Assembly (NCBI GenBank): GCA_029856045.1
Contig: JAHQWG010000016.1
Span: forward strand, 227,921 to 251,920
Source: Promethearchaeia archaeon
GTDB taxonomy: Archaea; Asgardarchaeota; Lokiarchaeia; Sigyniarchaeales; SOKP01
DNA: 24,000 bases
Direction of reading: 5' to 3'
Positions within the stretch are counted from its first letter, which is position 1. Each line of letters starts with the position of its first letter. The position numbers were made by a program, and so were the translations under genes. The notes below the pieces were generated by a model. That model saw only the letters and a program-made list of their open reading frames with translations, searched no databases and was not told the DNA's origin. Shown here in pieces: positions 4,304 to 24,000 of the stretch.

Positions 4304-4905
4304 ACTCTAATTTCAACCCTTTCCCATTGTTTTAGATATTTATTGAAATTTATGTTTGAAATTTTCCTAAATATTTTAATCTTATTTGAACTCTCTAATT
4401 CTTTTAATTTTAACATAATACTCTTGTTTCTATTTAGATGTTCTTGTGCATATATATATTCGTGAGGAAAGATTTTTTTAATTTGCTCAAAATCAATATT
4501 GCATAAATTATCATAGTTTTCAATGACCCATTTACATAAAGGATCTATGCTAATTTTAAAATTAAACGCATCTTCTTGCTTAATCGCCAATGGATATGCC
4601 CGACACGTCAAAGGTTTTACATCATGGACTTGGCATTTATTATCAATATGAAAGGGACATTGCTTTCTTTCATTATCTAACCTAATTCTCCATGTAACCA
4701 CTAAAATTTTTTGATTTTTTTCATCAGGAAAAACTAAATCTTCAATTATCTTAAAAGAAGCATTATTCTTTTTTGCAATTTCAATTAATTTATCTGCTTC
4801 ATCTGGATAAAGTGGAATCCTTTTATAAGTAGGATATTCGATTATCCCAGGTACCTCTGAGCAACAAGTACCGCAATTTTTGCATCTATACTTTAACTCT
4901 TTCAT
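4300..4905 (-). CDS. YkgJ/UPF0153 family cysteine-cluster (CxxCxxCC) protein
   Basis: N-terminal CKNCGTCCS (CxxCxxCC) plus CPFHIDNKCQVHDVKPLTCRAYP. Its stop overlaps the ThiI-like start by 4 nt (4300-4303), which implies co-transcription and translational coupling. Confidence 0.75.
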   Translation of the reverse strand: MKELKYRCKNCGTCCSEVPGIIEYPTYKRIPLYPDEADKLIEIAKKNNASFKIIEDLVFPDEKNQKILVVTWRIRLDNERKQCPFHIDNKCQVHDVKPLTCRAYPLAIKQEDAFNFKISIDPLCKWVIENYDNLCNIDFEQIKKIFPHEYIYAQEHLNRNKSIMLKLKELESSNKIKIFRKISNINFNKYLKQWERVEIRV

Positions 4906-5076
4906 TAAATATCATCTTAGAAACATTATTTTGCATACTTAAATATTATGTTGGTATTTTTGTAAAGTTATTTTAAATCTTATCTGAATACTCTCTTCGA
5001 TATTACATCATTTAAATAAGAATAGTTATAGCATTAATTTTAGATAGAATCGTTTTTTTAAAGGTAAAATAAAAAT

Positions 5077-5959: not shown

Positions 5960-6106
5960 ATGTATTATTGTGCAAGAAAAGGTTGCAATAAAGAAGTTAC
6001 TCCTGATGAATTAAAGGCATTGCCTGGCATTAAATGTTCTCACTGTGGATATAGAATCCTTTATAAAAAAAGACCTGGGGTAATTAAACGAATCAAGGCT
6101 AATTAA
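5960..6106 (+). CDS. rpoP: DNA-directed RNA polymerase subunit P (Rpo12/RpoP)
   Basis: I translated this 48-aa ORF by hand; it is too short for the supplied track. The product is MYYCARKGCNKEVTPDELKALPGIKCSHCGYRILYKKRPGVIKRIKAN. The zinc-ribbon CxxC...CxxC and the LPG(I/V)(K/R)CxxCGY(R/K)I(L/I) core match archaeal RpoP. Confidence 0.85.
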   Translation: MYYCARKGCNKEVTPDELKALPGIKCSHCGYRILYKKRPGVIKRIKAN

Positions 6107-6121
6107 AAATATTAGGATGAT

Positions 6122-7057
6122 TTAATGTTCAATATTAAAATTTAATTTTAATATTAGCTCTTTATACCGAGTTCTTACGGTTGCTTCTGTTATTCCAGCA
6201 ATATCTGCAATTGCTTTTTGGGTGCGACGTTCATCAGTTTGAATTGCAGCGATGTAAAGTGAAGCTGCAGCTAAACCTGTAGGCGCTTTTCCTACAGTAA
6301 TATAATGTTTTTGAGCTAACTGTAGGATTTTTGCAGCTTTATTTTGAGTTCTACCTGATAAACTCAAATCCGCACAAAATCTTGGAATAAAGTCGATTGG
6401 TGATGATACTCTCATATTTCTTATTTTTAATTCTTTTAATATTAATCTATAGCAACGCCCCAACTCTTTTTTTGTAATAGAAGAAAATTCGATAAAATCG
6501 TCTAAAGTCTTTGGTAAACCCTTTATTCTACAAGTAGTGAATAAGGAAGCTGCTAACATAGCTTCAATCGATCGACCCCTTATTAAATTCTTATAAGCCA
6601 TCTTTCTATATACTATCGCAGCCGATTCTTTAATAGAACCTGGCAGATTTAATTGAGAACAATATCTATCTAGTTCATTCATAGCATTTGCCAAATTTCT
6701 ATCAATTGATTTATGTATCCGTGATCTAGTATGCCATTTTCTTAATCTATGAACTTCTGCTTTCATTTTTGGACTAATTTTTTTGCCATGTGCATCTTTA
6801 TCTTTCCAATCTATTGTTGTACTTAATCCTTTATCGTGTAGTGTAAATGTAGAAGGAGCTCCAACTCGAATTTTTTTAGCTTTCTCTTCTGATGAAAACG
6901 CTCTCCAATCTGGTCCGGAATCAATAATTCTTTGATTAATTACTAATCCACAAGTGTTACAAATGATTTCCCCTCTAGATAAATCTGAAATAATCGAGAA
7001 ATTACCACATTCCGGACATTTCTCAAAATTTATCTCGTTTTCATCTTTAGTAGTCAC
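6122..7057 (-). CDS. tfb: Transcription initiation factor IIB (TFB)
   Basis: N-terminal Zn-ribbon CPECGN...CNTCGLV, followed by two cyclin-fold repeats (GRSIEAMLAASLFTTCR..., GKAPTGLAAASLYIAA...RTQKAIADIAGITEATVRTRYKEL). GTG start, preceded on the - strand by GAGGGT 8 nt upstream (SD-like). Confidence 0.95.
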   Translation of the reverse strand: MTTKDENEINFEKCPECGNFSIISDLSRGEIICNTCGLVINQRIIDSGPDWRAFSSEEKAKKIRVGAPSTFTLHDKGLSTTIDWKDKDAHGKKISPKMKAEVHRLRKWHTRSRIHKSIDRNLANAMNELDRYCSQLNLPGSIKESAAIVYRKMAYKNLIRGRSIEAMLAASLFTTCRIKGLPKTLDDFIEFSSITKKELGRCYRLILKELKIRNMRVSSPIDFIPRFCADLSLSGRTQNKAAKILQLAQKHYITVGKAPTGLAAASLYIAAIQTDERRTQKAIADIAGITEATVRTRYKELILKLNFNIEH

Positions 7058-8638: not shown

Positions 8639-9772
8639 TTGTCTTATGATAATTTTATATTTATATTTGATGCTCAAAATGAAATTGGGGGTTTTTGGAA
8701 AGGTGAATTTGCTGAAGAATTTGATGAAATTTTTGCTAAGGAAATTATAGAAAAAATTATTAAGAAATTTGGTGAATTAGATTTTAGGATTTTCGATACA
8801 TTAGATCCAAAAAATGAAGAAGATAATAATAACAAAATCTTAAAAATTGAAATCTTAAAAAGATTACCTAATAAGACCCTTTGGAAAATTAAAAGAAGAA
8901 TTTCGTCCTTATTTGTATCTAAAAAAATTATATCTAAAATTGGAGAATTTCGTACATTTGATAGTTCATGGAAATGGCGTAGAGACTTATTAAATTTAGA
9001 TAATATTAATAAATTGTCAATTACAAATATATTAATTATGTTTTTTACCATATTCTTTATTTATAATATAGGAATTTTACAATTGTATGATGGAACTCTT
9101 TCTTTTTTGTTTATTATTTTTATTTTATTAGCTTTAACTATAGTTAACTTAATATTTGTTTTATTTCCAATGAGATTTCCTGGAATTATAAAAAAAATAA
9201 TTAATTTAGAAGATAAGGAACATGAAGAGGAAGAAGTCCAGACAAGAAAAATTGAAGAAATAAAGGTCATTAAAGAACCTCTTAAACCATCTGTCCCTAT
9301 CTTACCTTCAGAGCAGAAATTCGAAGTATCGTCAAAACTTCTATCTTTAATTAAATCTAATACTTCATCAAAAAAAAATGAAAAGGAAAAAACAAAAAAA
9401 GAAAAAGAAAAATCATTAGAATCTCTTAAAGATGGAAAATCTGACCTAAAAATCCCAGAAGTTCCAGTAGCTCCTCCAAAACAGATAGTAAAACTCGATT
9501 CCCCCGAAATTTCTCCCGAACTCTTAAAAAAAATAACTAAAGGAGAAACTAAAGAAATAAAATATATGCTTGTTAAATGTGATAGATGTAATAAAATAAT
9601 TGCATTTCCTGTTCCAAAGAAAAAAGTTCTTAAATCAGAATTACCTGTTGTTCCCATTTCATATATTCATGGAAAGGGAAAGGAAAGACACTGTTTAACA
9701 GCTCATGTTGATCATGATTTTGATATTAGACGACGGCGGGTTTCTGATGTTGTATTTGAAGAATTGGAGTAA
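8639..9772 (+). CDS. Membrane protein: N-terminal soluble domain, two TM helices, a K/E/P-rich linker and a C-terminal Cys/His domain; function unknown
   Basis: Hydrophobic segments are ILIMFFTIFFIYNIGILQLY and LSFLFIIFILLALTIVNLIFVLF. The low-complexity linker has Pro-containing stretches (PLKPSVPILPSE, IPEVPVAPPKQ). The C-terminus reads VKCDRCNKIIAFPVP...SYIHGKGKERHCLTAHVDHDFDIRRRR. TTG start, with no early in-frame ATG. Confidence 0.5.
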   Translation: MSYDNFIFIFDAQNEIGGFWKGEFAEEFDEIFAKEIIEKIIKKFGELDFRIFDTLDPKNEEDNNNKILKIEILKRLPNKTLWKIKRRISSLFVSKKIISKIGEFRTFDSSWKWRRDLLNLDNINKLSITNILIMFFTIFFIYNIGILQLYDGTLSFLFIIFILLALTIVNLIFVLFPMRFPGIIKKIINLEDKEHEEEEVQTRKIEEIKVIKEPLKPSVPILPSEQKFEVSSKLLSLIKSNTSSKKNEKEKTKKEKEKSLESLKDGKSDLKIPEVPVAPPKQIVKLDSPEISPELLKKITKGETKEIKYMLVKCDRCNKIIAFPVPKKKVLKSELPVVPISYIHGKGKERHCLTAHVDHDFDIRRRRVSDVVFEELE

Positions 9773-10971: not shown

Positions 10972-11337
10972 ATGAATATAATTGCTGAAAAGAAGGTTCA
11001 AATAGATAATATTACTATTTATCTTACTTTACTAAAATTATATCGAGGCTATGTTCTTTTTATATCTGATCAAGAAAATTTTGGATTAGGTTCTATTACT
11101 TTAAGCACACCACCTTTAAATGATGTTCTAAAATCAACATCTGTTTCGTATCAACTGTTTGGAATGGAACATAACTTATTATCTAAAATGATTGTAGAAA
11201 AAGCAGCGAGTAATTTAAAAGAACCAGTTATATTATTATTTTTTTTAAAGGAAAAAGAAAAGGAGAAGGAACTCATTAAGCCAATTATAACATTGCTCAA
11301 TCAAATTTTAGAGGAATATGAGAATTTTAAAAAATAA
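10972..11337 (+). CDS. Hypothetical protein, possibly PAC4-like proteasome assembly chaperone
   Basis: 121-aa ORF with host-like composition. The pattern YVLFISDQENFGLGSITLSTPP...STSVSYQLFG...LLSKMIVEKAASNLKEPVILLFFL loosely resembles the PAC4 (PSMG4) family. This is a recollection only. Confidence 0.3.
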   Translation: MNIIAEKKVQIDNITIYLTLLKLYRGYVLFISDQENFGLGSITLSTPPLNDVLKSTSVSYQLFGMEHNLLSKMIVEKAASNLKEPVILLFFLKEKEKEKELIKPIITLLNQILEEYENFKK

Positions 11338-11438
11338 TGACAATAGGAATAAATTAGTATGATACTTCAAATTCCTCCTTCAAAATTTCTTTGAATTTAA
11401 TAAATATCATCCAAAAAATCTAGAAAGTAGGGATATAA

Positions 11439-11654
11439 ATGAGTATTGATTGGATTCCAGCAAGAAAAATTACTCCAAAAGAAAGGGGGAATAGAGGAAT
11501 TTTTCCATCACATAAAGTTCCAAGCGGATTTGCGGGATATGAGTCGTGCTTAGAACGGGATATCATACTATTGTTACATCACGCTCCTGATGTTAAGAGA
11601 TTCCAACATCAACCTAAAACAATAGTCTATAAGAATAGCAAAGGTTGGTTCTAA
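11439..11654 (+). pseudogene. Truncated TnsA-endonuclease N-terminal-domain gene (Tn7-like or restriction-endonuclease-like), 71 codons only
   Basis: GYESCLERDIILLLHHAPDVKRFQHQPKTIVYKNSKG matches the ES.LE.D....LE.DP.V..F..QP..I.Y signature of TnsA_N-domain proteins. The ORF stops before the catalytic core that normally follows. Its GC content is visibly higher than the flanking host genes. Confidence 0.6.
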
Positions 11655-11689
11655 AAAGGTAGAAGAAAAAGCATAAAGAAAGATAAAGG

Positions 11690-12661
11690 TTAAGGCCTAA
11701 GCAGTCTCACCGTGGAGGATCCACCCCAACTCCTAGTGCAAAGCCTATTGCCTGGACGGTGCGAATCCAAACGAGCCCGCCCAAAGTCTCGATGCCACCA
11801 CCCAGTCGGCACAAGGTCACTTTTTACACGTTTTACATATTTTACATATTGACCAAGAAACCATAAGGCATTGTTATCATACCTGTCATTACTTACTTCA
11901 TTGGTTGTTTCGAGGTGGAAAAGAAATTTTGTAATAAAATCTTCAAGTGTTTTTCCTGTTTCTCCTTGATAAGCTTGCGTCTGTAATGTTCGTAAGTAAT
12001 CACGAGGAGAAGAGCCTATTTCTAATTGTCTTCTGCCTCCTAATGTCTTTCCTCGGCCTTGTTGAGGCATAATGGGTAAACTTTCAACTAATCCCACAGA
12101 CCAGCCTGGAACGGCACAAATACGTCCATTATTGACTACTTCTAATTTGGTCTGTCCCCGATGATTGCTTGAATATTCTTGAGGAAAATATACAAGCTCG
12201 TCTGTATCTAGTGCCTGTCTTAAGGTATCCCATATCCAGACATGTTTTTCGGTATTGACACGAACAGGTATTAAAGGATCAGAAGGAGAATGTCTGGTTT
12301 GATAAATCTTTCCTTCTGCTGCGTGTTTAAGAATAGCTGCTTTCATTCGATCAATAAGAAGGGATGTTGGCATTGTCATGGGTGTTAGCTCTAAACGATC
12401 AAACCCTTGTGGAACTTTTCTACCTACAAGCTCTCTATTATGATCAAATAGTTCTACAACCTGTTCTTGGGTTGGTATTGGATACTCTTTTCCATCTATT
12501 CCAATCACCCCAATGCTTTCTGATTTCGGAAGAAGCGTGAGAATGCCGGTGCGGTTTAAGGCGGTAACGCAACGGGCATATTCCCTTTCAACAGGAAATA
12601 ACTGTTCTGATTGAGGATCTCCTTCCATGTGCGCTGATGCGTCTATAGGTTGTTTTGACAT
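11690..12661 (-). CDS. Orphan 323-aa protein of foreign composition; no family recognised
   Basis: Uninterrupted ORF with an ATG start. Hand-counted GC is 35/60 (11701-11760), 23/60 (12241-12300) and 30/60 (12541-12600). Neighbouring genes give 17/60 (11041-11100) and 16/60 (13021-13080). The protein is R/G/P/Q/V/T-rich, unlike the K/I/N-rich host proteins. Confidence 0.6.
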   Translation of the reverse strand: MSKQPIDASAHMEGDPQSEQLFPVEREYARCVTALNRTGILTLLPKSESIGVIGIDGKEYPIPTQEQVVELFDHNRELVGRKVPQGFDRLELTPMTMPTSLLIDRMKAAILKHAAEGKIYQTRHSPSDPLIPVRVNTEKHVWIWDTLRQALDTDELVYFPQEYSSNHRGQTKLEVVNNGRICAVPGWSVGLVESLPIMPQQGRGKTLGGRRQLEIGSSPRDYLRTLQTQAYQGETGKTLEDFITKFLFHLETTNEVSNDRYDNNALWFLGQYVKYVKRVKSDLVPTGWWHRDFGRARLDSHRPGNRLCTRSWGGSSTVRLLRP

Positions 12662-12971
12662 ACCCTATTATACCATTTTTTAGTTAGATTGTCATAACTA
12701 ACTAATATATTTAAAGATTATTATAAAGTGTTAGTTGTGTCAATAAGTTTCGATTATAAACATACAGGAAATGACAAAAAGTTTATTGAAGTTAAGTATT
12801 TGTATTGATTAGTATAAAACTATTAGGAAGTTGGATATTTAAATTCATTACTAAAATTTGGACATTCATTGCCAATAATTACCAAGTGCATTGCTATTAT
12901 TATTTAAAATAATCAGAATATAAAAGTAAAAAAAAATTAATAAATTTATTATATTACGAGGATTTCCTGAA

Positions 12972-13280
12972 TTGAAAAAATTCATTCTTACAAATATCTT
13001 TGGAAATACGGTTCGAATTAAAATTCTTGAACTTCTTCTCGATAATATTTTAAAAAAAGAGGTTGAATGGGAGTTTATCTCTAAAATTGCTAAAGAAGCC
13101 GGAATATCTACTTCATCTTCAAAGCGGGTTATTGATTCACTCATAGAATCTAATATTGTCGATGAATTACCAATTAAAACTCATGCAAAAAATCCAAAAA
13201 GAAGCATTCGATTAAATTTAGACAATAAAATCGTTAACGAGCTAATCTTTTTTTACCGGAAAATCCGAGCCTTTAAATAA
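12972..13280 (+). CDS. Small winged-helix DNA-binding protein (ArsR/MarR-like archaeal regulator)
   Basis: VRIKILELLLDN...EWEFISKIAKEAGISTSSSKRVIDSLIESNIVDEL has the helix-turn-helix plus wing layout. TTG start. The gene is divergent from the orphan ORF across a 310-nt spacer. Confidence 0.5.
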   Translation: MKKFILTNIFGNTVRIKILELLLDNILKKEVEWEFISKIAKEAGISTSSSKRVIDSLIESNIVDELPIKTHAKNPKRSIRLNLDNKIVNELIFFYRKIRAFK

Positions 13281-13296
13281 ATATTCATTTTTTAAA

Positions 13297-13461
13297 TGCA
13301 GGGAGTGGGATTCGAACCCACGAAGAGCTATCTCACCGGATATCCCATCTGAAATTAGTAAGATCAACGGAAATCATATTAATTAGATCTTGAGTCCAGC
13401 TAATGAGAAAGTTTTTTTCCCAAAAGAGTCCGGCACCGTTGACCAACTTGGTTATCCCTGC
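13297..13461 (-). tRNA. tRNA-Leu(CAA), class II, with two putative introns (~34 nt and ~47 nt)
   Basis: The - strand reads GCAGGGA-TA-ACCAAGTTGGTCAACGGT-GCCGGACTC[34 nt]AAG[47 nt]ATCCGGT-GAGATAGCTCTTC-GTGGGTTCGAATCCCAC-TCCCTGC-A. Removing 81 nt gives an 84-nt class II cloverleaf. It has a perfect 7-bp acceptor stem, a T-arm GTGGG/TTCGAAT/CCCAC, a variable arm and the anticodon loop CT-CAA-GA. Confidence 0.8.
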
Positions 13462-20511: not shown

Positions 20512-20989
20512 TAAAACCTAATTAATATTTATTATCTCTTTAAGAATATAAAAAACATAAAATTTATAATTTCAAAGATCTTTTAATACTATGTTAGTAT
20601 TAAATTTATAAGTTATTGGGAGCAAACTATTTCATCCTCGCCCCAAAAAGGGATGCAATATCCTAATAACTAGCACAAATATCATGGAAGAAAATCAAAA
20701 ATCTCGGGGCATTTGATTTATCGGGAAATGATGTTTAAGCTAGGCACAAGGAATTTAAAATTTTTATAATTACATAATAATTAACTTGGAAATACACTTT
20801 AGAATATTAAGAATTTTGATAATTATTGATTTTTTTAACTCCAAGCTTTCCATATATCTCTTAATCTTGTGCTCATAGGAATATATTCTTCCAAACAGGT
20901 AATCGTCTTAGGTATTAAAAATATTTAAGAAATTAAATAAAACAAACTAATCCTAAATATAAGCACTCTAAATCTTCCTCTGAGTATTA

Positions 20990-24000
<3,011 letters not shown>

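Follow-up and report, generated by a model that had tools for sequence, protein, structure and literature searches.

The locus described here lies in a stretch of 24,000 nucleotides (nt), hereafter called the window, from a Promethearchaeia archaeon (GenBank assembly GCA_029856045.1, contig JAHQWG010000016.1, positions 227,921 to 251,920). The window is archaeal, since it contains a complete archaeal large-subunit ribosomal RNA (LSU rRNA) at 20988-23991. Two convergent open reading frames (ORFs) are found in it, as the initial annotation of this DNA had described: the remnant of a TnsA-like endonuclease gene encoding 71 amino acids (aa; 11439-11654, plus strand), and a gene of 323 aa belonging to an uncharacterised family (11690-12661, minus strand), with 35 nt between their stop codons. 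These two are the only genes held by an insert of 1.6 kb, which splits two host genes that are adjacent in related genomes, and which is probably the remains of a transposon with its cargo.

Composition of the 323-aa gene

The region was originally singled out as a compositional island, and sliding-window GC content, GC content at third codon positions (GC3) and amino-acid usage all deviate from the surrounding DNA. In 300-nt intervals over 11550-12750 the GC content is 38-43%, compared with 21-30% in the flanking DNA on either side. The 323-aa ORF (972 bp) has a GC content of 42.2%, against 27.5 ± 2.2% (maximum 35%) in background intervals of the same size from the non-rRNA part of the window (27.5% GC overall), corresponding to a z-score of ∼6.6. 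Its GC3 is 0.29 (host ORFs, 0.19 ± 0.03), and the GC content of its first and second codon positions is 0.49 (host ORFs, 0.36). Amino-acid counts agree with the R/G/P/Q/V-rich alphabet noted for the protein: these residues are raised relative to host proteins (R, 8.4 versus 4.1%; P, 6.2 versus 3.9%; Q, 5.3 versus 2.8%), and K, I and N stand at about half the host level (K, 4.6 versus 10.4%; I, 4.6 versus 10.8%).

Because its GC3 is only 0.29, the high GC content of the gene stems mostly from its amino-acid content, and the donor was not GC-rich. The early proposal of a higher-GC, possibly bacterial donor is therefore borne out in its second half only: bacteria harbour the closest copies, and the family is most deeply diversified in those of the candidate phyla radiation (CPR), whereas the GC3 value speaks against a GC-rich source.

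The insert, its ends and its empty site

The genes for DeoC, a 121-aa protein and a 102-aa protein are contiguous in the relatives L095 and L096 (78-85% DNA identity) and L097 (∼72%), which were reached via homologues of the host gene at 10972-11337. The 121-aa and 102-aa genes are separated by a 29-nt gap in L095 and overlap by 4 nt in L097. Homology of the window to these relatives ends at 11319 and restarts at 12915. Since it is broken between these positions, 11319-12915 constitutes an insert of 1,597 bp, and these relatives, which lack it, represent the empty site.

The longest inverted repeat of the region 11280-12960 sits exactly at both synteny breakpoints. Its left arm (TGAGAATTTTAAAAAATAATGACAAT; 11319-11344, plus strand) and its right arm (reverse complement TGATTATTTTAAATAATAATAGCAAT; 12890-12915, minus strand) are 26 nt long and match at 21 positions, a score that 400,000 random pairings of 26-mers drawn from the window with the same AT-richness never reached. 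The ends of the element can be written as TGAGAATTTTAAAAAATAATGRCAAT. The pentanucleotide GAATA flanks the insert on both sides (11314-11318 and 12916-12920) as two copies of a target-site duplication, and a single GAATA is present in the empty site of L095 (...AGAAGAATATAAAAG...). Inside the right arm lies an AT-rich interior (12791-12889, with the motif ATTGCCAAT) that is absent from the empty sites and does not occur in other copies of the cargo block described below. The borders given by the synteny breakpoints and the inverted repeats replace those first placed at ∼11.40 and ∼12.67 kb. Accordingly, the insert includes the AT-rich stretches 11319-11438 and 12662-12915, and the TnsA-like remnant, initially taken for a neighbour of the island, belongs to the same inserted unit.

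The insertion truncated the 121-aa host gene (10972-11337, plus strand), whose homology to L095 and L097 ends at 11319: its last five codons (ENFKK) and its stop codon are now read from the left inverted repeat. The original 3′ end of the gene is stranded beyond the insert, from 12916, and together with the spacer before the next gene (12916-12971, plus strand) it aligns with L095 6342-6400. There follows the 102-aa host gene (12972-13280, plus strand), which in relatives comes directly after the 121-aa gene; it is winged-helix-like, with only weak helix-turn-helix (HTH)-type Pfam matches.

The TnsA-like remnant and the probable transposon ends

The TnsA-like remnant begins 95 nt inside the left repeat, or 120 nt from the left terminus of the element, and reads inward. 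Its first ∼69 codons are homologous to TnsA-like genes; the last two codons and the stop codon come from the cargo block. The 71-aa ORF itself gives a weak match to NF033179 (E=0.0025), and its longer homologues match PF08722 (E=1.5e-10 and 1.8e-14). The suggestion that a truncated TnsA-like gene is present was thus correct, in that the ORF belongs to the TnsA N-terminal (TnsA-N) family and is cut at about residue 69. The family alignment runs on past this residue with the catalytic segment '...KYTPDVYVEF..EIKYE', which is missing in the window copy.

The end motif AAAAAATAATGGCAAT recurs in the same genome ∼70 nt upstream of a second TnsA-like remnant (L090 4916-4930), where there is no 323-aa gene, and is found at none of the other loci with a 323-aa gene. 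For these two reasons, the inverted-repeat ends can be assigned to the TnsA element and not to its cargo. A shorter motif, (T/A)RRCAAT, is present in one to two copies at each end in the window and in four copies upstream of the L090 paralogue. No TnsA-like sequences were found near the 323-aa gene in other loci.

The second remnant (L090 4830-4970 and 5001-5315) encodes 104 aa, is 80% identical to the first and is preceded by four direct copies of the TTGGCAAT-type motif, with a 475-aa tyrosine integrase gene 1.4 kb away. All 13 database members of the TnsA-N family are at most 120 aa long, so the whole family looks decayed; some members are 84% identical between the genome of the window and Promethearchaeota. 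One further TnsA-like remnant, P0274, ends at the same residue as that in the window, but was set aside as an unrelated internal deletion without the 323-aa gene.

A duplication of 5 bp at the target site is a hallmark of Tn7-family elements, and elements of the Tn7-like kind are typically tens of kb in size. As neither TnsB nor TnsC was found in the sequence examined, the assignment to the Tn7 family rests on the TnsA-N homology, the 5-bp duplication and the layout of the insert. The insert resembles Tn7-family transposons in having a TnsA-N gene as the first gene inside one end, reading inward, in its 5-bp target duplication, to some extent in its terminal inverted repeats, which have the form TG...CA with a GCAAT-type motif repeated in the ends, in carrying an unrelated cargo gene, and in its host, DPANN and Asgard archaea being among the hosts of such elements (Benler et al., 2021, PMC8649781; bioRxiv 10.1101/2025.07.27.667033). 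Indeed, Tn7-family elements have been reported across archaeal superphyla, including DPANN and Asgard, one of them being 15.8 kb long (bioRxiv 10.1101/2025.07.27.667033). In contrast to these, the element in the window is only 1.6 kb long, retains ∼69 codons of tnsA without tnsB, tnsC, tniQ or tnsD, has TGA/TCA in place of TGT/ACA termini, and is inserted in the 3′ end of a small host gene instead of a known attachment site.

A probable cargo gene shared by archaea and bacteria

Comparison of the insert with more than 60 other loci by blastn delimits a cargo block that is conserved across domains (11646-12790, minus strand). Its limits are 11646 on one side, which is shared with eight loci and lies inside the last codons of the TnsA-like remnant, and 12709-12790 on the other. 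The block of ∼1.15 kb comprises a 44-nt 3′ flank, the 323-aa gene, its putative promoter and ∼129 nt of shared upstream sequence.

The 323-aa ORF had been called an orphan, but its family, which is uncharacterised, is large and comprises 713 clusters at 50% identity. Among 5.8 billion proteins searched, 556 relatives were found, the best 120 of which are 72-97% identical to the window protein; the exact window sequence is not on record, as judged by an exact look-up. Scans of species-representative genomes and of metagenomes yielded 62 and 205 loci, respectively. Copies in other phyla or in the other domain have 93-96% protein identity and about 95-97% DNA identity. In archaea, such copies are found in Micrarchaeota, Promethearchaeota, Halobacteriota, Methanosarcinales, Methanoregula, Methanoperedens and a closed 2.7-Mb euryarchaeal chromosome; in bacteria, they are found in Chloroflexota, Actinomycetota, Atribacterota, Caldisericota, Gammaproteobacteria, Bacteroidia and the CPR bacterium Nealsonbacterium. 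DNA with 95-98% identity is present in at least ten bacterial and five archaeal lineages, the latter including Asgard, DPANN and methanogens. The nearest relative is bacterial for seven of nine archaeal copies, and the overall pattern is star-like, a few 'central' sequences being the nearest to most copies. The centre of the star lies close to the copies from Pelolinea, Actinomycetota and RBG_16 gammaproteobacteria, and the mobile clade numbers roughly 750 copies.

The gene keeps its own composition in these hosts, with a GC content of 40-47% (one exception at 53.5%) next to flanks of 28-59%, and a GC3 near 0.29 in the core clade. The gene codes for a protein and is under purifying selection: dN/dS ratios are 0.16-0.59 and become lower as divergence increases, and the dS values separating it from copies in other phyla or in the other domain are only 0.04-0.09. 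Internally deleted remnants are a minority of copies (L035, L040, L043 and L062). No match to phages or plasmids was obtained in IMG/VR (three different queries), PLSDB or INPHARED.

In several respects the gene resembles broad-host-range cargo genes described previously, which likewise keep their own composition in any host, have near-identical DNA across phyla, bring their own promoter and use different integrating elements as carriers (Sheinman et al., 2021, PMC8270642). The 323-aa gene differs from them in crossing the boundary between bacteria and archaea repeatedly, in residing in uncultivated lineages of anoxic sediment, peat and groundwater, in having no match in plasmid and phage collections, and in a synonymous divergence of 4-9%, which makes its spread old on a human timescale.

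Putative expression signals

A promoter-like site upstream of the 323-aa gene (12667-12695, minus strand) consists of ATGACA, a 17-nt spacer and TG-n-TATAAT, and stops 5 nt upstream of the ATG. Of all sigma-70-type matches in the region it is the best, agreeing at 11 of 12 positions and having the TG of a near-consensus extended -10 element. The sequence TGnTATnAT is kept in most copies of the subfamily termed A, in both domains. From the sequence, a promoter function of this site appears plausible. As it ends so close to the start codon, the mRNA is predicted to be leaderless or nearly so, and such an mRNA would be translatable in both domains. Many copies start at Met12, and residues 1-23 are disordered in the structure model; the same AT-rich box could act as a -10 element in bacteria and, for a transcript starting at Met12, as a TATA-like element in archaea.

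Flanks and probable carriers of the gene at other loci

Copies of the gene that are >95% identical share between 10 and 233 bp of upstream flank and between 21 and 397 bp of downstream flank. Among 178 loci, unrelated pairs share at most ∼420 bp upstream and ∼540 bp downstream, the exception being 1,031 bp of downstream sequence common to L005, L101 and L106, which are taken to represent a single organism. Repeats bracketing the gene, whether direct or inverted, were not found at other loci, with att-type repeats having been sought at seven tRNA-adjacent loci. The neighbours of the gene are ordinary chromosomal genes: a Pfam census of 148 neighbouring genes from ∼50 distinct loci revealed no recurrent integrase, transposase, conjugation or partner family, and a PADLOC census of the neighbourhoods gave scattered defence matches without enrichment. 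Some insertions amount to a bare ORF, as in the case of L072 between era and glnE, with homology extending from the start codon of glnE to ∼8 nt past the stop codon.

An excess of transfer RNA (tRNA) genes is seen within ∼0.6 kb of the gene. They are mostly tRNA-Ser genes situated upstream in the same orientation, and are host genes, since they differ between hosts. Subfamily B is marked by the N-terminus MQKKKTQSEQ. Here, the CCA ends of different tRNA-Ser genes are joined to one and the same sequence on the element side (RTTGGAAAA...), and in one locus of the subfamily (L158) a Resolvase N-terminal fragment is present at the tRNA-Ser junction. In addition, this subfamily has a 71-aa XRE/HTH_3 gene 4 nt upstream of the 323-aa gene; the HTH gene is often cut to 24-31 codons, next to an intact 323-aa gene. 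Taken together, the 323-aa gene appears to have been the cargo of at least two unrelated carriers, namely a serine-recombinase element targeting tRNA-Ser genes and a TnsA-type transposon.

Some individual loci show further features. A sequence of ∼30 nt (TTTGCCGCCAAAGAAAAACTTGAAATCGTC) lies inside the resolvase N-terminal fragment upstream of the gene in L158 (5465-5665) and recurs just downstream of the gene in the subfamily-B loci L007, L013, L055 and L058; it may be a recombination core or part of a split recombinase gene. In L066, the last 16 nt of a tRNA-Ser gene (4807-4822) are repeated 156 bp downstream at 4963-4978, 23 bp before the start of the gene, which looks like the att scar of an integrative element that has been almost wholly deleted. 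In L006, from a Pelolinea metagenome-assembled genome (MAG), a tRNA 3′-half fragment (∼4700-4762) lies ∼240 bp upstream of the gene. As part of this fragment is shared at 98% identity with the gammaproteobacterial MAG L011, it seems to have travelled with the block. In three loci of one bacterial lineage (L163, L164 and L167) the gene is found 140 bp upstream of the transfer-messenger RNA gene (ssrA), on its 5′ side, which is not the usual side for island integration. The gene is single-copy per genome except in L107, in which two copies (5983-6924 and 8823-9764) encode identical proteins 2.8 kb apart, each after an XRE gene, one of them truncated; a TdeIII-type restriction endonuclease gene (PF09520, E=5e-57) is situated 5 kb upstream.

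Origin of the insert

Several explanations for the presence of the 323-aa gene at this locus were weighed. One would be an assembly chimera or contaminant, in which a widespread sequence had been mis-joined into an archaeal contig. The sequence is indeed common to many community members, and many assemblies break in or beside the 323-aa gene. However, the left junction is identical in at least ten independent assemblies (JGI, Logan and ENA), and both junctions are spanned by the source contig of 598 kb and by L080, a 108-kb contig from another sample that is 99.6% identical. Polymorphism is spread evenly, the 5 variable positions among 972 within the gene matching the level of its flanks; the junctions have a transposon-type structure, and long-read MAGs, including the closed 2.7-Mb chromosome, also carry the gene. 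With the shared junction and L080 excluding a mis-join, the probability of an artefact is next to nil. Only marginally more credible is that a tRNA-targeting integrase placed the island beside the nearby tRNA gene, as proposed in the initial annotation. There is a genuine class-II tRNA gene ∼380 bp from the right border, and elsewhere a subfamily of the 323-aa gene adjoins the 3′ end of tRNA-Ser genes, together with the remnant of a serine recombinase. The tRNA gene is nevertheless not the integration site: the host gene at 12972-13280, syntenic in relatives, stands between it and the insert, and the junctions fall in the 3′ end of the 121-aa gene, with inverted repeats and only 5 bp directly repeated. 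Neither a tRNA-derived direct repeat nor an integrase is present in the island.

Another possibility is that the block moves autonomously as a mobile element of a single gene, with the 323-aa protein being a transposase or recombinase of a new kind. This would agree with a lone gene of extreme host range, a star-like phylogeny resembling the burst of a master copy, contigs that often break at the gene, very tight insertions such as that at era/glnE with ∼10 bp of flank, and conserved K, R and Y residues in an unmatched fold. On the other hand, the block has no fixed ends even among its >95%-identical copies, is bracketed by repeats nowhere else and is single-copy in all genomes but one; the inverted repeats in the window go with the TnsA family, occurring beside a paralogue that has no 323-aa gene. 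The protein has no transposase or recombinase family match in Pfam, NCBIfam or PHROG, and its CPR homologues stand in conserved synteny like ordinary chromosomal genes. We thus consider autonomous movement unlikely. Archaeal and bacterial integron cassettes, which have been described as cross-domain platforms (Ghaly et al., 2022, PMC9668308), provide a further comparison: they too are single promoter-proximal ORFs of ∼1 kb present in both domains, including Asgard and DPANN archaea, whereas the 323-aa gene lies outside cassette arrays, with no integron integrase nearby and with ragged instead of fixed borders. The conserved 3′ flank of the gene (TAAcctttatctttctttatgc...) contains no imperfect palindrome, that is, no attC-like site after the stop codon.

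We therefore favour, with good though not full confidence, the reading of 11319-12915 as the shell of a TnsA-type (Tn7-family) transposon carrying a cross-domain cargo gene that is picked up by different integrating elements. The empty-site comparison shows that the transposon landed in the last codons of the 121-aa host gene, duplicating GAATA. Both inverted ends of 26 nt remain, as do the first ∼69 codons of tnsA, and all other functions required for transposition are gone; with no tnsB or tnsC present, the element is a dead shell. Comparison with more than 100 other loci shows that its interior is now the cargo block of ∼1.15 kb, consisting of one gene that needs no partner gene. The 323-aa gene would not move by itself, different integrating elements picking it up instead. 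These carriers would decay, while the gene would stay intact under purifying selection; on these grounds it presumably pays its way in any host. The earlier notion of a decayed mobile element with intact foreign cargo is strongly supported by the empty site, the inverted repeats, the 5-bp duplication and the near-identical copies in other phyla.

Some observations weigh against the reading as a Tn7-family shell with cross-domain cargo. The 1.6-kb insert contains neither a TnsB DDE transposase nor a TnsC ATPase gene, and its terminal bases are TGA...TCA in place of the canonical Tn7 TGT...ACA. A repeat of 5 bp in DNA of 20% GC is weak evidence on its own. The combination of shell and cargo is seen in one population only, in which the cargo may have been captured either before or after the internal deletion. 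Finally, host labels of short MAG contigs may be mis-binned, but long contigs and one complete chromosome support the presence of the gene in both domains.

The 323-aa protein and its family

The 323-aa protein has no Pfam match, and nothing consistent was found in Pfam among 100 family members. NCBIfam, PADLOC and PHROGs returned noise only, the PADLOC output being limited to three weak PDC-S05 matches (E ∼0.03). Sequence and profile searches of the PDB yielded no matches. Its fold is predicted with confidence (model pLDDT, a per-residue confidence score, of 94.9), and in Foldseek searches of the PDB and BFVD the best E-value exceeds 0.3. Relatives are all named 'hypothetical protein' in their source databases. 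Family members lack signal peptides and membrane segments, and the residues K82, Q85, Y158, K172, R210, Y222, Y231, E234 and E240 are nearly invariant.

Deep members of the family (29-43% identity) come mostly from Saccharibacteria and Parcubacteria. In a CPR lineage represented by L048-L051, homologues at 34-37% identity occur in the conserved synteny valS, tsaD, homologue, SET-domain gene; since their divergence resembles that of their neighbours and the synteny is conserved, vertical inheritance is suggested in that lineage. Three relatives (P0159, P0168 and P0257) are fused at their C-terminus to an AAA_5 (McrB/MoxR-type) ATPase, and in L054 a homologue follows an AAA_5 gene in an apparent operon. 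No AAA_5 partner is present in the window or in loci of the mobile clade; the ATPase is fused or adjacent in distant CPR homologues only. Longer relatives of 670-854 aa (P0155, P0210, P0252 and P0200) share an N-terminal domain with the motifs 'GKVGVEIEFG' and 'HISSLHLHLD', which has no Pfam match. The combination 'GKVGVEIEFG...HLHLD' is presumably reminiscent of carboxylate-amine ligases or amidoligases, for which Pfam gave no support.

Controller (C) proteins precede restriction genes, and in subfamily B a small XRE gene lies directly upstream of a mobile, stand-alone 323-aa gene in a similar manner. Likewise, the fusion or adjacency of distant family members to AAA_5 ATPases is reminiscent of McrBC/MoxR-type AAA_5-coupled systems, from which the 323-aa protein differs in having no Pfam McrC match, no significant PADLOC match and no structural similarity. 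Since distant relatives are fused to or adjacent to AAA_5 ATPases and one mobile subfamily is headed by an XRE-type controller, the protein could conceivably act in the cytoplasm as an effector or enzyme of a conflict or defence-type system coupled to an NTPase, a guess to which we would give rather little weight. In the mobile clade such an effector would have become independent of its NTPase partner. Three points count against it: there is little defence-island signal in the neighbourhoods; truncation frequently affects the XRE gene but spares the 323-aa gene; and no recognisable catalytic motif is present, the invariant residues not mapping to a known catalytic signature. In particular, no nuclease motif or fold, such as PD-(D/E)xK or HNH, was recognised.

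The gene might alternatively encode the toxin of a type II toxin-antitoxin or addiction module, the loss of which would be lethal. The XRE/HTH_3 gene of subfamily B is arranged as in HipBA-like pairs, the module is mobile, and AbiE and ParE genes occur near some loci. However, the copy in the window and all copies of subfamily A have no upstream partner, the partner in subfamily B is often reduced to a fragment, and there is no significant PADLOC match and no Pfam toxin family. Because the XRE gene is absent in one subfamily and often truncated in the other, we regard a toxin-antitoxin module as very improbable. A somewhat better, if still tentative, possibility is that the protein represents a new fold and functional class, encoded by a self-expressing gene that is useful or selfish in essentially any prokaryotic cell. 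It could be an effector in defence or conflict that acts alone and stems from a CPR system coupled to AAA_5, or a protein that favours its own uptake or integration.

Implications

The locus represents a fully resolved fossil of a Tn7-family element in an AT-rich archaeon, in which the empty site, the inverted repeats and the target duplication are all visible, and it strengthens the very recent case for such elements being at work in archaea. As a transposon fossil it is of a known kind. The cargo is the weightier finding, and an unusual one: a single uncharacterised gene with a confident but unmatched predicted fold, intact under selection, that forms a self-promoted unit crossing the boundary between bacteria and archaea repeatedly. 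A gene that cells so different from one another keep, or have imposed on them, suggests a target that they all share, and its expression signals are predicted to be usable in either domain. It could serve as a marker for the routes and the frequency of DNA transfer between the domains in sediments and peat. Being small and self-contained, it is easily testable in Escherichia coli and in a model archaeon. If it did represent a new class, it would be among the most promiscuous genes shuttling between bacteria and archaea, spreading from a 'master' source in anoxic sediment.

The neighbouring tRNA gene

Outside the island, a host class-II tRNA gene lies at 13297-13461 (minus strand). ARAGORN called no tRNA anywhere in the 24-kb window, and a search of the island with Rfam gave no RNA family, this neighbouring gene being the only match (RF00005, 42.2 bits against a gathering score of 29). 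The gene has a long variable arm and an 85-nt intron inserted in its anticodon loop, and is 91% conserved in L095.

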